Both the position numbers and the translations under genes were made by a program. This document shows positions 17,733 through 47,465 of a DNA stretch of 64,000 nucleotides, piece by piece. The notes below the pieces were generated by a model. The model ran no database searches. It saw only the letters and a program-made list of their open reading frames with translations, and was not told the origin of the DNA. How positions within the stretch are numbered: position 1 is the stretch's first letter; every line of letters begins with the position of its first letter. The stretch is from Sphyrna mokarran (taxonomy: Eukaryota): the NCBI GenBank assembly GCA_024679065.1, contig JAGIQG010000006.1, forward strand, positions 68,386,001 through 68,450,000, given 5' to 3'.

Positions 17733-17829
17733 CAGCCAGGATGTAGAGCAGCATGTGACCAGTAGCTAATAGTGTGTGGTGTGTTTGTGCAAATAGCAAC
17801 AGTATTTGCTATTGCTATAGCAACAAATA

Positions 17830-18723
17830 GCAGATGATACTAAAGTTGGTGGTGTGGTAGATAGTGAAGAGGGGTGTTTTAGTTTACAGAGTGACTTGGA
17901 CAAGTTGCAGAGCTGGGCCGAGAGGTGGCAAATGGAGTTTAATGTGGAAAAGTGTGAGGTAATGCACTTTGGCAGGAACAATAAATGTGTAGAGTATAGG
18001 GCTAATGGTAGGGCTCTTAATAGTGTTGAGGAACAGAAGGATCTTGGTGTATGTGTCAATAGATCCCTGAAAGTAGGCAGTCAAGTGGATAAAGTTGTTA
18101 AGAAGGCATATGGAGTCTTAGCTTTTATTGGTAGGGGGATTGAATTTAGGAGCCGCAGCATCATGTTGCAACTGTACAAAACTCTAGTGCGGCCGCACTT
18201 GGAGTATTGTGTGCAGTTCTGGTCCCCACATTATAAGAAAGATGTGGAGGCATTGGAGAGGGTACAGAGGAGGTTTACCAGGATGTTGCCTGGTATGGAG
18301 GGCAGGTCCTATGAAGAGAGGTTGAAGGATTTGAGGTTGTTTTCGTTAGAAAGGAGGCGGCTAAGAGGGGATCTTATTGAAGCATATAAGATGATTAGAG
18401 GTTTAGATAGGGTGGACAGTGATAGCCTTTTTCCTAGGATGGAGAAAGCTAGCACGAGGGGACACAGCTTTAAATTAAGGGGTATGAGTTATAGGACGGA
18501 TATCAGAGGTAGGTTCTTTACTCAAAGAGTGATTAGGGAGTGGAATGCCCTGCCTGCAGCTGTTGTAGATGCGCCAAGTTTGGTGGCGTTTAAGAGGTTA
18601 GTTGATAAGTATATGGAAGAGAAGGGAATGGTTTAGTTAGGAGGGGCATTGCTTTTTATTTTGGTCGGCACAACATCGAAGGCCGAAGGGCCTGTTCTGT
18701 GCTGTATTGTTCTATGTTCTATT
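17830..18723 (+). mobile_element. Young 5'-truncated CR1 LINE with intact ORF2 3' portion, 3' UTR and (TGTTCTA)n tail
   Basis: Open from ADDTK (17830) to the stop at 18636; CpGs retained; canonical tail 'ggccgaagggcctgttctgtgctgtattgttctatgttctat'. Confidence 0.97.
17854..18636 (+). CDS. CR1 ORF2 C-terminal fragment (RT thumb/C-terminal domain); transposon-derived, not a host gene
   Basis: 260 aa with WQMEFNVEKC, KDLGV, LYKTLVRPHLEYCVQFWSP, LERVQRRFTRM, RRRLRGDLIEAYK, TRGH, FFTQRVIREWNALP. Confidence 0.9.
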   Translation: MVDSEEGCFSLQSDLDKLQSWAERWQMEFNVEKCEVMHFGRNNKCVEYRANGRALNSVEEQKDLGVCVNRSLKVGSQVDKVVKKAYGVLAFIGRGIEFRSRSIMLQLYKTLVRPHLEYCVQFWSPHYKKDVEALERVQRRFTRMLPGMEGRSYEERLKDLRLFSLERRRLRGDLIEAYKMIRGLDRVDSDSLFPRMEKASTRGHSFKLRGMSYRTDIRGRFFTQRVIREWNALPAAVVDAPSLVAFKRLVDKYMEEKGMV

Positions 18724-20620: not shown

Positions 20621-21350
20621 CATAAGACTATAAGATCATAAGACATAGGAGCAGAATTAGGCCGTTCGGCTCATTCAGTTTGCTCTGTCATTCAATCATG
20701 GCTGGTATTTTTCTCATCCCCATTCTCTTGTCTTTTCCCCATAAACCCTTATCCCCTTATTAATAAAGAACCTATCTATTTCTGTCTTAAAGAAACTCAA
20801 TGACCTGGCCTCCACAGCCTTCTGCGGCAAAGAGTTTCATAGATTCACCACTCTCTGGCTGAAGAAATTCTCCTCATCTCTGTTTTAAAGGTTCATCCCT
20901 TTAGCCTGAGATTGTGTCCTCTGGTTTTACTTTTCCTACTAATGGAAACATCCTCTCCACATCCATTCTATCCAGGCCTCGCTGTATCCTGTAAGTTTCA
21001 ATAAGATCCACCTCATCCTTCTGTCACCTGGTTCTCCTTTATCTAATTTCCTTGATACCTCCTTAAAGAACTCTAACAGATTTGTCAAGCATGACATTCC
21101 CTTGACAAAGCCGTGCTGACTCAGGCCTACTTTATCACGCACTTCCAAGTACTCTGCAATCTCATCTTTAATAATGGACTCTAAAATCTTGCTAATGACT
21201 GAAGTCAGGCTAATCTGCCGAGAATTTCCCTTTGCTGTGTCCCTCCCTCCTTAAATAATGGCATTATACAGTAGTTACCTTCCAATCCTCCGGTACCCTC
21301 CCTGCCTCCCAGTGATTCCTGAAAGATTACCACCAACACCTCCACAATTT
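20621..21350 (-). mobile_element. CR1 LINE with 3' end and an internal deletion
   Basis: Tail 'cataagactataagatcataagacataggagcagaattaggcc'; ORF 20939-21148 'SQHGFVKGMSCLTNLLEFF..V..KLDKGEP' jumps to C-terminal sequence near 21022. Confidence 0.9.
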
Positions 21351-34904: not shown

Positions 34905-37162
34905 CAGCAACATTGGTGAGGATCACTTTGGGACCATGACCATAATTCTATTGGTTTTAAGATAGCTATGGAGAATGATAGATCTGTCCCAAAAGTTCAA
35001 ATTCTAAACTGGGGCAAGGCCAATTATGATGGTATCAGGCAAGGACATTCAAAAGTTTATTTGGGGAGTCTGTGGGAAGGCAAATGGATATCTGGTAAGT
35101 GGCAGGCTTTTAAAAATGTGTTAACCAGGGTTCAGGGTAAGCACATTCCTCTGAGAGTGAAGGGCAAGGCTGGCAGACTTGGGTACCCTGGATGACTTGG
35201 GATATTTAAGCCCCAGTCAAGAAGAAGAAAGAGGCATATGACAAGCGTAGGCAGCTGGGATCGAGTGAATCTCTTGAACAGTATAGGGGGTGTAGGAGTA
35301 GAGTTAAGAGAAAAATCAGGAGGGCAAAAAGGGAACACCAGATTGTTTTGGCAGCTAAGACAAAGGAGAATCCAAAGAGCTTCTACAAATACATAAAGAG
35401 CAAAAGAGTAACAAGGGAGAAAGTAGGGCCTCTTAAGATCAACAAGATCATCTATGTGTGGATCCACAAGGGATAGGTGAGATGAATAAATGAATATTAC
35501 CTTATCATTATTTACTATTGAGAAAAGCATGGATGTTAGGGAACTTGGGGAAATAAATAGTGATGTTTGAGGACTGTACATACTACAGAGAAGGAAGTGC
35601 TGGAAGTCTTAAAACGTTTCAAGGTAGATAAATCCACAGAACCTGATGAAATGTAACCCAGGACATTGTGGGAGGTTAGGGAAGAAATTGTGGGTCCTCT
35701 AGCTGAGATATTTGAATAATTGAAAGTTAGAGTGAGGTGTCTGAACATTGGAGAGCTGCAAATGTTGTGACTTTGTTTAAAAAGGGCTGCAGGGAAAAGC
35801 CTGGGAACTACAGGCCAGTGAGTCTCACATCCATGGTGGGTAAATTGTTAGAAGGTATTTTGACAGACAGGATCTACAGGCATTTATAGATGCAAATACT
35901 GATTAGGGACAGTTAGGATGACTTTGTGAGTGGCAAATCATGTCTCACAAATTTGAATGAGGTTTTGAAGGGATAACCAAGAAGGTGGATGAGCACAGTG
36001 CAGTTAATGTTGTCTACATGGATCTTAGAAGGCCTTTGACAAGGTACTGCATGGTAGGTTGTTGCATATTTTTAAATCTCATGAGATCCAGGATGAGGTA
36101 TTGAAATGGATACAAAATTGGCTTCTTGACAGAAATCAGATGTTGGTTTCAAACTGGAGGCTTGTGACCAGCGGTCTGCCTCAGGGATCAGTGCTGGGTC
36201 CACTATTATATGTCATTTATGTTAATGATTTGGATGAAAATATAGAGACGTGGTCAGTAAGTTTGCAGATGACACTAAGACTGGTGGCATAGTGACAGTG
36301 AAGAAAGTTATCTCCAATTGTAACAAGATCTTGATCAATTGGGCCAGTGGGCTGACAATTGGCAAATGGTGTTTAATTTAGACAAATGCAAAGTGAAGCA
36401 TTTTTGTCGACTGAACCAGAGCAGGACTTATTCAGTTAATGGTAGGGATTGGGGAGAGTTACAGAACAGGGAGATCTAGGGGAACATCTTCATAGCTCCT
36501 TGAAAGTGGAGGCACAGAGTGAAGGACAGAGTGGTAAAGAAGGCATTTGGCATGCTTGGGGGTTTCATTGGTCAGAACATTAAATGCAGGAGTTGAGACA
36601 TCTTGTTGAAGTTGTACAAGGCATTGGTAAGGCCACACTTGGAATATTGTGCGCAATTCTGGTCACCCTATTATAGAAAGGATATTATTAAACCAGAAAA
36701 AGTGCAGAAAAGATTTGCTAGGATGCTACTGGGACTTGATGGATTGAGTAATAAGGAGAGATTGGATAGACTGAGACTTTTTTCTCTGGAGTGGTGAAAA
36801 AGGTCTATAAAATAATGAGGGGCACAGATCAACTAGATAGTCAATATCTTTTCCCAAAGGTGGGGGAGTCTAAAACGAGACGGCATAGGTTTAAGGTGAG
36901 AGGAGAGAGATACAAAATTGTCCAGAGAGGCAATTTTTTCACACAGAGAGTGGAGTGTCTGGAGCAAACTGCCAGAGGTAGTAGTAGAGTCATGTACAAT
37001 ATTGTCTTTTGAAAAACATTTAGATAATTACAATGGCTATAGAAGGAAATGGGCCAAATGCGGGCAATTGGGATTAGCTTAGAGGTTTTAAAAAATAAAG
37101 GGTGACATGGACAATTTAGGACAAAGGGCCTGTTTCCATGCTGTAAGCCTCTATGACTTTAT
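34905..37162 (+). mobile_element. CR1 LINE, ~2.3 kb (endonuclease end, RT, 3' UTR), decayed
   Basis: [73 protein letters not shown]; tail 'ggcctgtttccatgctgtaagcctctatgac'. Confidence 0.95.
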
Positions 37163-39195: not shown

Positions 39196-40172
39196 GGGCT
39201 AAATCTTAGTGAATGACGGCAGAGTGTTGTTCCTGGCAGAAAAAAAGACTCAGCATGTTTCTCTGAAAAGAAACATGTTGGTTGTCTCTCCAGATCTTAT
39301 GACACTCTGCAAAGAAAATTCTAGGCGGTGTGCTTCACACCATTATATGGGGGCGGGGATGGTTCGGGGTGTGGTGGAACTCAACATGCCAGCAAAGTTC
39401 AGTGCACAGAGCCATCTTTAAAGGCAGCCTGATCATATCCTAAATAAACCTCCTCCTAGCCCACCACAGAAGCCTCAGGGGTTCCTTATCCCACTCCCAA
39501 TCAATGTCAGCACTTCTCTGACATCCTCTTCTGATCATTAGCACCTTTCTTCCCTCCCCCCCACCCCCCATTCCAGCCTACAGTTTGAGCCAGCATTCAC
39601 ATGGACAGCAAATGTGGACTTAAGATCACCCCCTGAATGTGTAAGTGAACGGATGAGTATGTCAGTGGGTAGATGGGTTAGGTAAATAAGTAAGTGAACA
39701 GGATGGTAGATGGGTTTGGTGATAGGAAGGTAGCTGGGTGGAATGGCATGATAGCAGGTGGGTAGGTTGGCAGTGTGGAAGTTGGGCAAGGTGGCAGGTG
39801 GGTGGAGTGATAGTGTAGGAGGTTGGTAGACTGACAAGCAGGTGAGATGGATAGGTGTGTTGGGCGTAGTCAGGTTGGTGGAGGTGGGATGGAAGAGGGC
39901 GCAGGAAGGGACTCAGTTGTATAGTTACCAAGGAATTTTTTGTCTAACATTTCCTCTGTAACTATTCAACCTGGTCAGAATTGTACAAAGTCTGACTCTA
40001 ACTCAGAGTGAGAGATATTTTCGGAGGGTCCTGGGGAATTGACCATTGGAAGTTCAGACAACTTGGCCAATTCCCACAAGAGCCAATGCATCAAGACTTC
40101 CATTGGATCCAAGATTTGCATCTTAGGCTTTATGTCTTGTTTTTGACAATCGGGAGATTGAAGGTCTAGGCC
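39196..40172. mobile_element. Apparently complete Harbinger-type MITE
   Basis: TIRs gggctaaatctt / aaggtctaggcc; 3-bp AT flanks att / aat; a partial inverted copy lies at ~45520-45900. Confidence 0.65.
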
Positions 40173-41379
40173 AATATCAATTCACTTTTCACTTCCCATT
40201 ACTCCATCTTCAGGATAGATCCTCAATCCAGAATTTTAAAAAAAGATTCATTCCCAAAAGATGGGAATGCCAGATGCATTGATTGAATATTTCAGGGATT
40301 ACTCCAAGATAATTCAGATTGCCAGGCTGGATGCTGCAGGATTATCCGAAAAGGATTAAAAGCACTCAGAAATAATCATTAGACCAGATATCAAGTGGTG
40401 TTCGCAAATTTCTATCCAGTCTAACCATAAAGCAGACACATGTTCTGCTGTTTTCCAACACTAACACAATAATATGACTTCATAATATCAGAGGATAATA
40501 GAGTTATGTCACTTCAGAGATGACATAAGAACATTTCTCAAGTCTATCAGTAAACTTGCAATTACTGACAAGAATCACTGAGAAATCTGGTTCAGAGATT
40601 GGAGCCTGTCCTTTCCATTATGGAAGTGATGGCAAACTCCATGATAGCACTTGTGGAACAGATCATGAAGCAACAACTAAATGGACCATGTCTCAAATTG
40701 TATTGCAGCACGATTAGAAATCTAACACCTGAGTGCTGCAGTGAAAGCTGAGACTGAGATTACAGTTAACAAGGGGGTAAAAGGTTATTATGGGTAAGCA
40801 GGAATATGGGATTAAAGTTACAATCCGATTTTACAAATAACCTAGTGGATTATGTGATTGATGCACCGCAGAACATTCACGAGGGTTTTGGGGCAGAATC
40901 ATCCCTGGGATCAGTAAGCCATCTCCTTCTTCAATGGTGGATACCACTATATGAGCATCTTTCATATGTGTGGTTGGATATAACAGCAGGAACACAGGGC
41001 TAACCTGCCCATGCTGCCTTACGAAACATCAGGATACCTCTGATCACATAGTTAGGCCAGCATCACACAAAATTACACAAATCCACACAAGTCTCCCTGC
41101 CAAGAAATATTCCAATTCCCAGTCCTTGCCAGAATGGAAAATCCTACCAGTAGATTCTAATTATCAACCATGACCAAATATCAACGTTTATCACAAATGT
41201 GATTACCTTTACCTCAGTATTATATGTCCAAGCATCTTCTATATTTATAATATAATCTATTTTAAATAAGAAAGAACAAATAATAATCTCAGTTTCACTG
41301 TCATGTAGACTGATCACAAGATTGAACAGGTATATGCACATTACTAACCACTAAAAACATCATTAATAACTGCAGACAC

Positions 41380-43010
41380 ATGATTTTTCAGTGCTTGCAA
41401 CTTTGGATTGTTTTCCCTGGCAATGAAGACTGCTCACATCTGCCTCAGGAGAGCATATATTTCAGCACTGTTTTTGTTGAACCCATCCTAGTGATGACAA
41501 TGCTTGAACCCAATTGTCTAGGCACAGGAGTCTAGTGCGGCTGACTCTATTTGATTATTGTTCTGAAAGTGAGTTGCATGTTTGAAGACTTTCCACATTG
41601 TTCATGAGCTGCATCTGGAATTTTTCTCCTTGGTCAGGCTACTTTAAGGCTGCAACATTGACCTGCTTTCCTCCGAGAACTTTGGATCTTGCAATGGCTG
41701 GGTGGATGCTTATCTTTGAACAAGTTGACAATTTGTCCAGCAGATTTCAGCCTCTCACATGGATTGAGTGATACGTAAATCATTTAGATTTTTGACTTGA
41801 ACAATTATATAATCTAGGAGGTGCCAATGCATTATGGATTGTCCATAACCTATTCATCCTTCTGGCAGTAGAGGGTGTTCCTTATATTGAATGTATTTTG
41901 CCAGCATGTGGATGCCATTTGCATTATTTTCTCCCATCTTGGTTTTGCCAATGCTTGCTCTCCAGACACTGGAGTCACAGCCAACCCTGGCATTGAAGTC
42001 ATCTAAAAGGATGACCTTTCAATCTTTGGGACAGCTGTGAAGACTTTATCAAGGACAGAATATAACTTTTCCTTCACATGTTATTGGAGACAAGGTTTGG
42101 GGTTTAAAGTGCTGATGATTGTGGCATATTGAAAATGAGCCTTTCATTTGCAATTGGGGAATTCATTTACAATTGGCAGTGCATCCAAGATCCTATTCCC
42201 AATGGCAAAAACTAAACTGTGGAGATGAGGATTACAATCAATCTTTTCTTTAAAATAGTTGGTGTATCCATCTGTTTGTTCCTTCGGTTACCTCTCCCCA
42301 GGAAAGTGGCTCTCACTGAGGCGACGATGTTAATTAGAAATCTTGATAACTTATTATACAATTATAGTTCTTCTTTCTGCACAGTCATTCTTAAGAATAT
42401 CCATGAGGGTTCTAAGATTCCAAATTGCAAAATTTAAAGTTCTCTTCCTTTGACCACAAAATTGGTGATTCCACAAATGCGGTTCCCCAGCCAGGAGAAG
42501 ATGGGCACCTATTTTTAAGGCACATTTTATAACATTCTACTCATTTGAGGTGAGCAGAGGGTATACTGAAGAGCACTACTCAGCTGCAGATGCTTTCTCC
42601 AAATACACCTATGTTCCAATATACACCAATGACCTTCGTGCATTTGTCACTTGTATGCAGATTCTCAACTCGGTTCAAAATCCTATCTCGATCAACAATT
42701 TTTCATCATCATAGGACTTGGCGAATGGACACTGGTAGAAGCCTGCATGCAACTTTGTTTAATGTGGAAATCTTGAATTACCACCTGTGCAAGATCTCAA
42801 TTGGTTGGTGGTCAGAGTTTGGTGGCGTATTGAGCTACAATGACCAGGACCTTTTTACCACTGCAGTCTTCTCCAATCTTTTCAGCTGATGAGACACACA
42901 GTTTTCCTTTGCCAGTTCTGCTGTTGAGGACAGTTTTAGATTGCATTTTGTCTGGCAGCGCCCCTAACCTTGCCACCATGGATGGTTTTACCAAGAACAA
43001 GGAGCTCCAA
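41380..43010 (-). mobile_element. RTE-clade LINE 5' portion (5' UTR plus AP endonuclease), decayed
   Basis: Reverse frames: TLNFAIWNLRTLMD (42399-42440), LLDDFNARVG (41980-42009), HWHLLDYIIV (41801-41829). Confidence 0.85.
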
Positions 43011-43281
43011 ACAGCATCGCTCAAAATATTGTTGGAGTGCACAAAACTCTTCACTGTGTCAAGGTGGAAATCCATGCATGCTATATCCCACAAAATGTTA
43101 GACATCTTCAAGTTTTCAAATTCTTTAGTGATAAGCATTGAACATTTCATATAGGAAGGTGAATGTCTTCTGGCTCCTGAACTCTCTAATAACATGTAAT
43201 TCCTTAATCTGACACTAAATAACATTAAGAAGTCTCACAACACCAGGTTAAAGTCCAACAGGTTTATTTGATAGTAAACAC

Positions 43282-43316
43282 CACAAGCTTTCGGAATGCT
43301 GTTCCTTCATCAGGTG
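43282..43316 (-). ncRNA. Minimal type I hammerhead ribozyme, intact core
   Basis: Reverse RNA: CAC-CUGAUGA-a-GGAA-cagca-UUCC-GAA-AGCU-U-GUG, giving stem I CAC/GUG, stem II GGAA/UUCC and a palindromic AGCU helix III. Confidence 0.8.
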
Positions 43317-43550
43317 AGTGGAGAGTTCTGTTCAGAAACAGGGCAGAACTCCACTCACACCACTATCTCTATCATTATTTCCATTCACATTGTTTGCATG
43401 ATTCCACTATCTCTATCATTATCTCCACTCACATTGTTTACACCTTTAAGATTTGAATAGCAGATTAGCTGTAAAGACTCGCAGTCTAATCAGTATTCTG
43501 TAAACTGTGTGTGCCTTTATATGCCTTGTTTCTGAACAGAACTTCTCATT

Positions 43551-43585
43551 CACCTGAAGAAGTAACAGCGTTCCAAAAGCTTGTG
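43551..43585 (+). ncRNA. Minimal hammerhead ribozyme, mutated copy
   Basis: CAC-CUGAAGA-a-GUAA-cagcg-UUCC-AAA-AGCU-U-GUG; GAAA changed to AAAA (CpG-type) and one stem II mismatch. Confidence 0.7.
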
Positions 43586-44444
43586 GCATTTACTATCAAA
43601 TAAACCTGTTGGACTTACCCTGGTATTGTGAGACTTGTTACTGTGTTTACCCCAGTCCAACGCCGGCATCTCCATATCATGACTAAGTAGCAGTATCAGG
43701 GTTCAAAATACCCTATTCTGTTTTAGTTGGGTAATATTCAAACTGTGCTTTTTCATTAAAATTGAAATATAACAGATAACTCCCAAATAAGTGTATGCTG
43801 AGTCTTTCAAACCATTCCCATGTAATATTTAATTTCCAACACTCAAGCTATATTTCAGGATGTTTGGAAATGGGATGTGTAGATACTTCTATGACTCTCA
43901 TCCAACCCCACGCAAGTTTCTCATTTCTTTGACCATTAATATGCAGAAAATGTGTTCTCCAGCCTTACCTTTCTACATTAAAAAGGTGTAACTGTGGATA
44001 TGCTGATGAATTTTGTGGCAAAAACAGGTGAACAGCATGTTGCCAACACTTTATTGAGAAATGATAGAGGATGTCCCTTTTTTCTAAAGAGGTTTGTACA
44101 GAGCTATGCTGTTATCATGCTTTCATAGGCACCTCTTTCAGTTCAGTCCCAGTGCCTCCTGCTCTGATTTCAGAACACAGAGCTGAGCATATATTCCTTA
44201 TTTCCAGCTTTCTTGTGATATGAGTGGAAGAAAATAAAGTGATGCTTTTGTCATTCATTAATGTCCTCATGTCCTTTTTGTTGTGAAGTTGAGTTTATAC
44301 GAAGTACAGAATATCTGTAAAGTATGTAAAATACTAAAGGAGAAACAACAATGCATAGTTTCTTTAAAAACTGGTTCTGATAATGTCATCAAAAACTAAT
44401 TTTGTTCATTGCAGAATACACACAGACTCTATGTTGCCAAAATT

Positions 44445-45270
44445 TGTTCTGAGGACCAGACAACACGGTTGCTTTGATAATTGGCTCTGCAGGTTTTTGT
44501 ATTTTGTTTTTTGTATTTTGTTATCCTATGAGTTTAAAGAAGACAGTCAGCTAGCAGCCTATGAGTTTAAAGGAAACACTCAGCTAAAGGGAGACTGTAA
44601 GATTTGAATTTGCTCTTGTTGTCAGCATCAAACCAATCTGACTACAGGGATGTTGAAAGGTCATAAGGATTATAAAAGAGGGACTCAATTGCCTTGAGTT
44701 CAGTTGAAGCAAAAGTTGAGCCAGGAGTTCAACCAGAACTGGGGAAAGATCAGATCCCTGCCAGTTTAAAATATCTCTAGAGCCAATGGTCAAGGCCACC
44801 TCAACTGGAGCAGTTAAAAAAAGTTAAGGGCAATTATCTCAATTTAAGCAGTTAAGTCAATGGGACCAGTTAATCCTTAACTCTGCTAACTTCAGATAGG
44901 TCTTAAGATAACTCATTCTAACCAGCAAAAAGTACCAAATCAGATAGCACTTATAGACAGTGGACAACTACCTGATTCTATATTTTCTTCGAGAGTGGCA
45001 ATTTTATTATTTCTATATTGGTAATGAATGTTCCTCGTGTTTATTTAAATAGCACTTTAGTCAAACTTTCCTTTAATTAAAATGTTACTGATTTAAATAT
45101 ATTTCTTGTTTGATTAAAAATAAAATAACTTGTTAATTATTCTCTTAAAGTGAATGTCAGAACTTTATGTTAATGAATCTCTAAATGTTAAGGTAAACAG
45201 TTAACACCTTCCCAAACACTCTAACAGATTGTGAAGTGAGGTAAAGGGGATTAACCTCTACATTGTAGCA
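44445..45270 (+). mobile_element. Probable solo LTR
   Basis: tgttct...tgtagca termini, TATA-like 'tataaaa' near 44671, AATAAA near 45119. Confidence 0.55.
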
Positions 45271-46199
45271 TTTTCCCAATCTAATTATTTCTTCACCAGA
45301 ACACAAACTGCAATCAAGTCTAGATGACATTGGAGCTTAAAAGATTGCCAACACAGATTAACCTATCAGTTTTTTAGGTTCCACAATTCTTTACTATTTG
45401 CTGCATTATGCCCCAGGGGGTTAGTTCAAGAAACATCAGCTATAAGAACAAGCTCAAAAGGTACAGGCTGAAAAGTTTCAATCTTGGATAGTTGCACTTC
45501 AGATGGTAAACACCCTCAAAGTGCACTAGGGTAGCTCTTGGAAGTTCTGGGGGAAACAATACATGGGATTTTTCTAGGAAGCTTGGACTTCAGGTGGGAA
45601 AATCCTTTGCTATTGGAATCCCCTGGAACCTTGAAAAAGTTAGATACTTTGGATAGTTACAACTCACCTAGAATAGTTATCTAGGAAAAGTTAGAATTAA
45701 AACTAGTTTTAATTCATGGGTAACTCTACTTTGACCCCCCCAGCTCCCCATTGGACTTCCTCCGACTGCCACATCCAACTATGTCCTCTGACCATTTGAC
45801 TACCCTCCCAACTACCCAAATATCCTCTAACCACCCAATGACTTCCCATCCACTAAGTAGCCTCCAATTTGACCATCATCAAATCTGTAGCTCCCTGCTG
45901 AATCCTTGAAGGATTGTTATTATAGCTGAGGTCATTATGAACACTTGGCTAAGTTTCAAAAACTACAAAAGCACTTATCTCAGCACACCACGGATTGAAT
46001 TTGCAATATATTGGAAGTTTAAAATGGCTATTAAAAAATTAATGGTCTTTGATGTGTTACAGAATAGAAACTTATTTTTAGAGCAATTATCATGATTTAA
46101 ATCTTTGGATGGTTTTCATGGAGGAGAGGCTTTTTGCATTATCAAGTATGCATGAGCTCCATCAGATTACTGAAAATTCATATTTTCTTTCTTATCATC

Positions 46200-46640
46200 A
46201 CGTGGCTGCTGAGATCTGCTCATGTTGCATGTTGGGTGAGTAGCAATGGAGTCAGCATCAAGATATGAGATGGCATGCAGGTGGTATGGAGGATGCATGA
46301 GTTGGCATGAAGGGAGATTAAGGTTAAAATTAACATGGCATTATTTGTGAAGTTTATGGTTCATGAGGGTAAGGGCAAAATGGCCCAACCACTTTTATTA
46401 CAACTGGGACAAAGTCTCAAAGAACTTAGATGGGCTTTCTCACCAGCCAGCCTCAACAATCACACACACTGTGGCCACCTACAATTGGTTTTCTGCTTCC
46501 AGGATTAATGAATCTGATTCTATTCACCATGTCACCTCAGGCTGAAAACTGGTAATATAGAGTCCATGTACACAAAGGCAGATCTGCCAAGAAGGGAAAT
46601 TTCTCAAATTGAGCCACACCTCAGGAGCAAAATCCAGCCT
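46200..46640. mobile_element. Right-end fragment of a Harbinger-like TIR element
   Basis: Ends 'gcaaaatccagcct'. Confidence 0.45.
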
Positions 46641-46674
46641 GCTGTCTATAGTCCCTGCTATTTTCAACATGTTT

Positions 46675-47465
46675 TAAAGGAACAAATGTCAGGAGTACAG
46701 TGTCAGGCTCTTTGGCCCACCAAGCCTGCATTGAATTGTAGTTTCTATCCCTTTGTTCACCTCCCATTCACTTTTTTTAAAGTTACACCTTGATTGTTGC
46801 TAATATGCCTGCTTTCTCCACCTCTACTGACAGTGTGTTCCACCACTTTCTGTGTGAAAACTTTCCAGCACTTCTCCTCTAAATTTATCACCTCTCACCT
46901 TAAATCTGTGCCCGCTTGTAGTTGACCCTTCCACCCTGGGGAGAAAAACCTCTGATTATTCATCTTGTCTATGCATCTCATAATTTTGTACACTTCTATT
47001 AGGTTTCTCCTCAGCCTCCGTTTTTCCACTGAAAAGAATCTGGCTTTATCCAATCTCTTCACATACTTAAAACTCTCTAGACCTGGCAACATCCTGGTAA
47101 ACCTTCTTTGCACTTTGTCCAATATATCCATGCCCTTCTGGTAATGTGGTGATCAGAACTGCATGCAATATTCCAAATGCTGCGTAACTAAAGTTTTTAT
47201 GGTTGTAACATAACTTGCCAACTTTTATACTCAATTCCCCAGCTGATGAAGGCAATAATGCTGTATGGCTTCTTGGTCACCTTATCCACTTGTATTGCCA
47301 TTTTCAGGGATCCATGTACTGTGCACCCAGATCCCTCTGTATGTCAATGCTCCTAACGGTTCTGCCACTTACTATATAATTCGCACCTGAATTTGAGCAC
47401 TTCACATTTTCTGGATTAAACTCCATTTGCCATTTCTCTGCCCAAGTCTGCAATTTATCTATACT
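46675..47465 (-). mobile_element. CR1 3' fragment
   Basis: ORFs 'DKLQTWAEKWQMEFNPE', 'QRDLG', 'LDKVQRRFTRMLPGL...RRLRRNLIEVYKIMR'. Confidence 0.92.

Follow-up and report, generated by a model that had tools for sequence, protein, structure and literature searches.

The window (the whole stretch of 64,000 nucleotides of Sphyrna mokarran DNA that was analyzed) contains a 456-bp insert at positions 43226-43681 that we assign, with a probability of about 0.9, to one old, truncated insertion of a Penelope-like element (PLE) encoding a reverse transcriptase (RT) and a GIY-YIG endonuclease, likely formed in a single step by priming from both strands of the target and likely inert since. The insert carried no ORF, was composed solely of sequence from the 3' end of its family, and was enclosed, both arms together, by a target-site duplication (TSD).

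Architecture and family of the insert

Two inverted arms, 43222-43345 and 43522-43644, formed a 124-bp pair with 87% complementarity (E 3.5e-38), the sole self-match within the window and in agreement with the ~120-bp arms of the preliminary description, whose two-armed unit stands with its right end moved one base past 43680 to complete the ATG of the tail. The left arm was an inverted, tail-less, 5'-truncated pseudo-LTR end on the minus strand (43226-43345, or from 43222 when the bases that overlap the TSD are included), and the right arm lay in a sense 3' stub on the plus strand (43420-43681), which consisted of 3' UTR, pseudo-LTR end, and tail and was 87-89% identical to the family over ~260 bp. 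An unpaired tail was present as described earlier, but it measured 37 nt (43645-43681, plus strand) rather than 40 bp; in near-intact tandem copies, the ATG that closes it serves as the start codon of the ORF. A TATA-like octamer in the stub (43516-43523, plus strand), ~36 nt upstream of the hammerhead core, may be a promoter element of the pseudo-LTR. Between the arms, the supposed spacer proved at 43420-43521 to be ordinary sense 3' UTR common to the family; only about 43346-43419 (~74 bp, plus strand) was private, a head-to-head junction composed of a short piece in sense orientation (43344-43361) plus a single unit of a tandem duplication with a 44-bp period (43360-43398 / 43404-43442).

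The two TSD copies flanked this unit at 43214-43224, where the last three of the 11 bases also match the continuation of the element (microhomology), and at 43682-43692, where the first four bases also match the continuation of the ORF. Within the window, these copies were identical at 9 of 11 positions, giving a score of 7 that was reached by 267 of 2756 mismatched flank pairs and is weak alone. A contig of run X14, from a related genome, spanned the right junction and had A at both mismatched positions, making it identical to the left copy at 11 of 11 positions and bearing out the 11-bp TSD that had been thought likely.

The proposed Penelope-like origin was supported by RT and GIY-YIG domains in linked copies and by the tail, which runs into the ORF. 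Longer copies extended upstream into a frame for RT followed by the endonuclease, and copies carrying the 3' end of the window insert, or one 72-78% identical to it, scored 36.6 bits for RVT_1 (Pfam cut-off 29.6) and 24.0 and 23.5 bits for GIY-YIG (Pfam cut-off 22.6). The Neptune/Nematis group is defined, in the accessible text of PMC8557442, by a CX2-5CxxC linker before the endonuclease and two cysteines between GIY and YIG. Loci L107-L111 had these marks, with the CX4CxxC linker CHSNLCKTC and YLIRCKKGCPEAWYIG, and, as judged from the linker motif, the family would be of Neptune/Nematis type. In L305, L311, and L312, the 3' UTR, hammerhead, and tail were followed by the ATG and an ORF, an arrangement in which the pseudo-LTR arises from partial tandems, and in near-intact young copies the terminal ATG of the tail was the start of the next ORF.

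The family is abundant. A search of the same genome gave 13,893 first-look candidates, and 39 other scored places either were 87-89% identical to the 260-bp sense part or showed a similar fold-back. An exact 44-mer from the arm occurred 3,503 times in the genome and an exact 37-mer from the tail 595 times, with 0 occurrences of either control. At the level of the family, we found the combination of an inverted 5'-truncated copy, a one-sided tail of 30-40 bp, and a TSD. A young subfamily (L108, L110, L111, and L300-L324) had 96-99% mutual identity, long open frames, inverted arms that were kilobases long, and other letters in helices I and II.

Fold-back insertions and their formation

Inverted partners accompanied 51 of 97 copies in a first sample taken in genome order (median 226 bp) and 54 of 90 in a second (median 217 bp; 90 of 100 listed places), compared with 3 of 90 in the control. 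Two members of the second sample, L211 and L212, lie 0.8 Mb apart on C1, have in common a run of 58 bases that includes private variants, and are possibly a segmental duplicate; they were counted separately. Of 85 similarity-selected loci, 51 were within reach of an inverted arm. A set of 53 two-armed insertions, the window copy included, ranged from 143 to 1,670 bp, and fold-back lengths were continuous from ~100 bp to more than 1.6 kb. TSD scores of at least 8 were found for 40 of these 53 insertions vs 81 of 2756 mismatched pairs, and in the second genome-order sample TSDs surrounded both arms in 36 of 54 cases vs 46 of 1500 mismatched pairs. The breakpoint pair of the window copy (both ends within 10-15 nt) occurred in 1 of the 53 insertions, the window copy itself. 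Seven pairs of insertions had both breakpoints in common within 3 nt; five of the seven fell at a hotspot or at the ends of alignments to divergent subfamilies, and those pairs that were inspected differed in junction length or subfamily. A few small self-copying families would still be compatible with this sample, which is not a census. The frequency of the fold-back, its varied junctions, and the TSDs around both arms therefore establish it as the ordinary insertion product of the family, formed anew each time.

These results bear on the two origins offered by the preliminary description, an extreme truncation or a self-contained, non-autonomous ribozyme retroelement, for which differing breakpoints were to mark ordinary truncation. 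Among the copies sampled, no other had the breakpoints of the window copy, and the truncation branch stands. A retrozyme-like element copied as a 455-bp unit would account for a TSD that encloses the whole unit, for the lack of an ORF, and for the great number of short two-armed units. Against it, a query spanning the junction matched no other copy in the 40 candidates scored out of 736, the sample (as opposed to a full census) held no recurrence of these arms with this inner junction, and the size range was continuous. Moreover, retrozymes are tandem units with motifs in the same sense (10.64898/2026.07.22.740005, accessible part), whereas the window motifs lie on opposite strands, one of them dead, with neither a head-to-tail unit nor same-sense hammerheads. 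We thus abandon the self-contained element, which we consider extremely improbable.

How fold-backs form is suggested by their ends. First, the outer ends were fixed and the inner ends varied: the sense arm ended at the end of the tail and the inverted arm ~37 nt further in, at reference positions 1733-1753 in 53 of 53 two-armed insertions, a count limited to arms ending at reference positions 1700-1757. Second, a few bases at the TSD ends doubled as element sequence, and the four positions next to the tail agreed with the ORF start in 37, 33, 34, and 29 of 60 copies. Third, the two arms of one insertion shared subfamily alleles in 83% of comparisons vs 62% between insertions, and therefore one RNA or close relatives served as template. 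In the mechanism that we propose, the endonuclease would nick both strands ~11 bp apart; one 3'-OH would prime at the end of the tail (the ATG of the ORF) and the other ~37 nt further in; and both cDNAs would stop early, to be joined in head-to-head orientation with some filler between them. The hammerheads were carried along because they lie ~100-135 nt from the end of the element. There is precedent in vitro, where both target strands were extended and the tail was bounded by the two start sites (PMC11167929, accessible text).

The inverted arm could instead have arisen, with the same origin for the insert, by self-priming fold-back or template switching on one cDNA, an explanation that we regard as unlikely yet deserving of weight. 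Alleles common to both arms fit it as well, palindromes occupy the center of some junctions, and self-priming fold-back is proposed in the accessible text of PMC3846280. It is opposed by the inverted arm having a fixed end, ~37 nt before the end of the tail, and overlapping the TSD by several letters, both expected if target DNA primed there, and by arm lengths that are usually unequal. A further point against it is the discordance of A and T between arms at two sites, hammerhead position 17 (43285 / 43582; 7 of 46 pairs) and a position 18 nt upstream of the core (5 of 34), compared with a background of 1.7%, which could mean two templates. Discordant pairs often shared private variants otherwise, a pattern that could stem from two templates, from mutation driven by palindromes, or from error at the site of cleavage.

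The inner ends piled up immediately 5' of the hammerhead core. The ordered samples held 292 arms, of which 277 were mapped with a reference panel cleared of short hairpins. Ends fell 1-10 nt before the first C of the core in 52 of the 277 (32/146 and 20/131 by sample) and 11-20 nt before it in another 25, or 77/277 within 1-20 nt. The end rate 1-10 nt before the core was 0.031 per nt at risk vs 0.002-0.005 further upstream, with a peak at -6/-7. By contrast, the cleavage site had no clear end peak among the mapped arms, with seven arms ending at +28 to +30 (0.010 per nt vs 0.007 and 0.005 beside it). When 67 piled-up arms were re-inspected, 50 passed directly into the inverted partner and 17 had no common upstream sequence, and the piled-up ends are therefore real. 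The arms of the window copy, with ends near -32 and -134, fall outside this class. Of 37 long arms, 20 had a TATA-like hexamer at -38 to -35 relative to the core; the young subfamily lacked it, and PLE promoters are placed in the pseudo-LTR by the accessible parts of PMC2377424 and PMC6765202.

On the simplest reading, the piled-up cDNAs would have reached the 5' end of the RNA, and a pile-up without a peak at the cleavage site would fit reverse transcription of uncleaved RNA as far as its 5' end, primed on either side of a staggered cut. Joined together, these observations suggest that both cut strands prime on uncleaved RNA at two fixed internal sites and that most of the resulting cDNAs, strong-stop-like products ending just before the hammerhead, are joined head to head, a proposal that we advance tentatively and at slightly under even odds. 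If true, the tens of thousands of stubs would be a fossil record of PLE integration, and double priming would account at once for the TSD, the tail on one side only, and the inversion of pseudo-LTRs; it would also place the start of transcription and imply that the ribozyme leaves the copied RNAs uncut.

The two hammerheads and the host locus

The preliminary description recognized two minimal hammerheads, an intact one on the minus strand and a mutated one on the plus strand, and the core letters agree. The minus motif (43316-43282), of type I, had CUGAUGA, an extra A, a 4-bp helix II, GAAA-GC-U-U, and a 3-bp helix I, with every core letter intact and a predicted cut between 43285 and 43284. 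The plus motif (43551-43585) had the tolerated change U7A, a mismatched base in helix II (43563), and, within a CpG (43575), G12A. G12 is the catalytic base of the hammerhead. In a search for CUGANGA, GAAA, and UH with helices I and II, the minus copy passed and the plus copy failed at G12. A scan of 40000-47000 with Rfam covariance models gave no hammerhead family at E ≤ 10, and the call therefore depends on the letters of the core together with covariation between subfamilies. In a set of 62 motifs, helix II was paired in 93% vs 75 ± 2% after shuffling (0/2000) and helix I in 88% vs 84 ± 1% (2/2000), by a statistic that ignores kinship. Covariation of helix II across subfamilies therefore indicates that the hammerhead was under selection in active masters.

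Activity within the window copy appears improbable. Its motifs lie on opposite strands, and one transcript thus holds one motif and the antisense of the other, which excludes a cis dimer and excision of the unit by the two motifs. As had been anticipated, a read-through transcript is predicted to form a long dsRNA hairpin. The accompanying idea of a switch between hairpin and ribozyme fared poorly: in a minus-strand transcript, the antisense arm is made before the arm with the intact motif, and forcing the hammerhead fold out of the hairpin has a predicted cost of 51 kcal/mol. Without the opposite arm, the predicted fold was still other than a hammerhead, and a swapped dimer of the 35-mer evaluated at -5.7 vs -17.4 kcal/mol for the best alternative fold. 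By these predictions, a switch is unlikely and neither motif would cleave within a read-through transcript; the ribozymes of the window are likely silent, one mutated and the other predicted to be folded shut.

Nor do the cores of the family appear to be maintained after insertion. G12 was changed in 29 of 97 arms, similar to other CpG guanines (25/89 and 31/100), and discordance between arms in the core was 25 observed vs 26.7 expected after base matching. An apparent conservation of the core (3.2% in the core vs 5.5% downstream, p = 0.005, without base matching) was gone once bases were matched. As read from these substitutions, hammerhead cores diverge at a neutral rate after insertion.

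Host co-option, in which the intact minus hammerhead would cleave a host transcript under the control of the hairpin, is very improbable in our view. In addition to the intact minus core, it could draw on the insertion having been kept in related genomes and on private non-CpG changes, 0 in the minus arm vs 8 in the plus arm (p = 0.008); 0 changes were also found in 4 of 80 arms, however, locus L025 was lopsided in mirror image, and the window copy had been selected for its intact core. Intactness of the inverted arm only was found in 5 of 41 pairs. Co-option is further opposed by the order of transcription and the predicted cost of opening given above, by the fold predicted in the absence of the other arm, and by a requirement for a dimer partner or protein help (PMC4209133 and PMC11167929, accessible parts). 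Finally, no host exon was recognized in the window, where 307 stop-to-stop frames (all 223 of at least 62 aa plus 84 shorter ones, a search that short exons can escape) gave RT fragments and one sub-threshold DUF hit only.

The insertion is old. Orthologous flanks in X14 and X15 differed at 77/1136, 66/724, and 121/1748 places (7-9%), which places the insertion before that split, and a contig of X14 spans its right junction. No contig of any sequencing run covered 43360-43401, and the presumed RNA runs X1, X2, X5, and X7 matched the repeat part only; neither result carries weight as evidence.

Other repeats surround the insert. A 140-codon open frame just to its left, considered as a host exon whose 3' splice site would hold the element, was rejected since 42480-43076 is an old dispersed repeat, with 41 other places among 40 scored candidates at 65-87% identity and no Pfam match. 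On the minus strand, 41400-43076 is an old, decayed repeat, and the Penelope stub lies ~150 bp from its edge. Within it, 42400-41800 resembles, across frameshifts, what we take to be an RTE-type LINE endonuclease, for which Pfam gave no hit. LINE-type RT fragments (RVT_1) were present at 17821-18636 (plus), 20939-21250 (minus), and 36029-36289 (plus), and short local duplications with 25-, 33-, 14-, and 18-bp periods, together with a weak 32-bp inverted pair, occupied 44355-44875.

Comparison with known systems

The layout seen in the window is already published (accessible parts of PMC4209133, PMC8557442, and PMC3846280). EN+ PLE insertions, as described in the accessible text of Craig et al. 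(2021; PMC8557442), Arkhipova et al. (2013; PMC3846280), and Schostak et al. (2008; PMC2377424), share with it 5' truncation, an inverted copy at the 5' end, a one-sided tail, and a tail that overlaps the ORF start, with partial tandems in longer copies. The TSDs of rotifer EN+ PLEs are given there as ~8-10 bp, compared with 11 bp here, and the window copy, at 456 bp and without an ORF, differs from the published insertions in being a stub of the type that dominates the family in this genome. Dual hammerheads on opposite strands, ~100-700 bp apart and probably derived from truncated PLEs, were reported by Cervera and De la Pena (2014; PMC4209133, accessible part). The window copy itself is minor, one of very many decayed stubs, and its value lies in the junction statistics of its family. 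Tens of thousands of short hairpins, perfect at birth, may contribute appreciably to the dsRNA of such genomes.

The motifs resemble the minimal hammerheads of metazoan PLEs, as far as these are described in the accessible text of PMC4209133, in being of type I, with an extra base 5' of helix II, G10.1-C11.1, a palindromic 15.2-16.2, and no real helix III. Schistosoma helices I and II are 4-5 and 7-8 bp in that source vs 3 and 4 bp in the putative ribozyme here. Animal non-LTR retrozymes (10.64898/2026.07.22.740005; PMC7229834; accessible parts) are likewise non-coding, hammerhead-bearing, and of PLE pseudo-LTR origin, but they are arranged head to tail with motifs in the same sense, whereas the two arms of the window insert meet head to head at a private junction.

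The origin of tandem and inverted PLE structures is called undefined in the accessible text of PMC8557442, and our searches of literature listings found no account of a breakpoint pile-up or of PLE inversions by twin priming or strong-stop cDNAs. The closest parallel is the Poseidon element of Anolis carolinensis studied in vitro (Frangieh et al., 2024; PMC11167929, accessible text), in which two start sites, extension of both strands, and the use of uncleaved RNA fit the footprints seen here. Differences from Poseidon include a separate clade (here with the Neptune-type linker), a hammerhead located ~125 nt before the ATG rather than across it, and junctions with short matches between target and template, whereas initiation at a non-homologous site is reported for Poseidon. 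The constant outer ends, the TSDs that enclose both arms, and the pile-up of inner ends just 5' of the hammerhead provide testable in vivo counterparts of the 2024 in vitro results.
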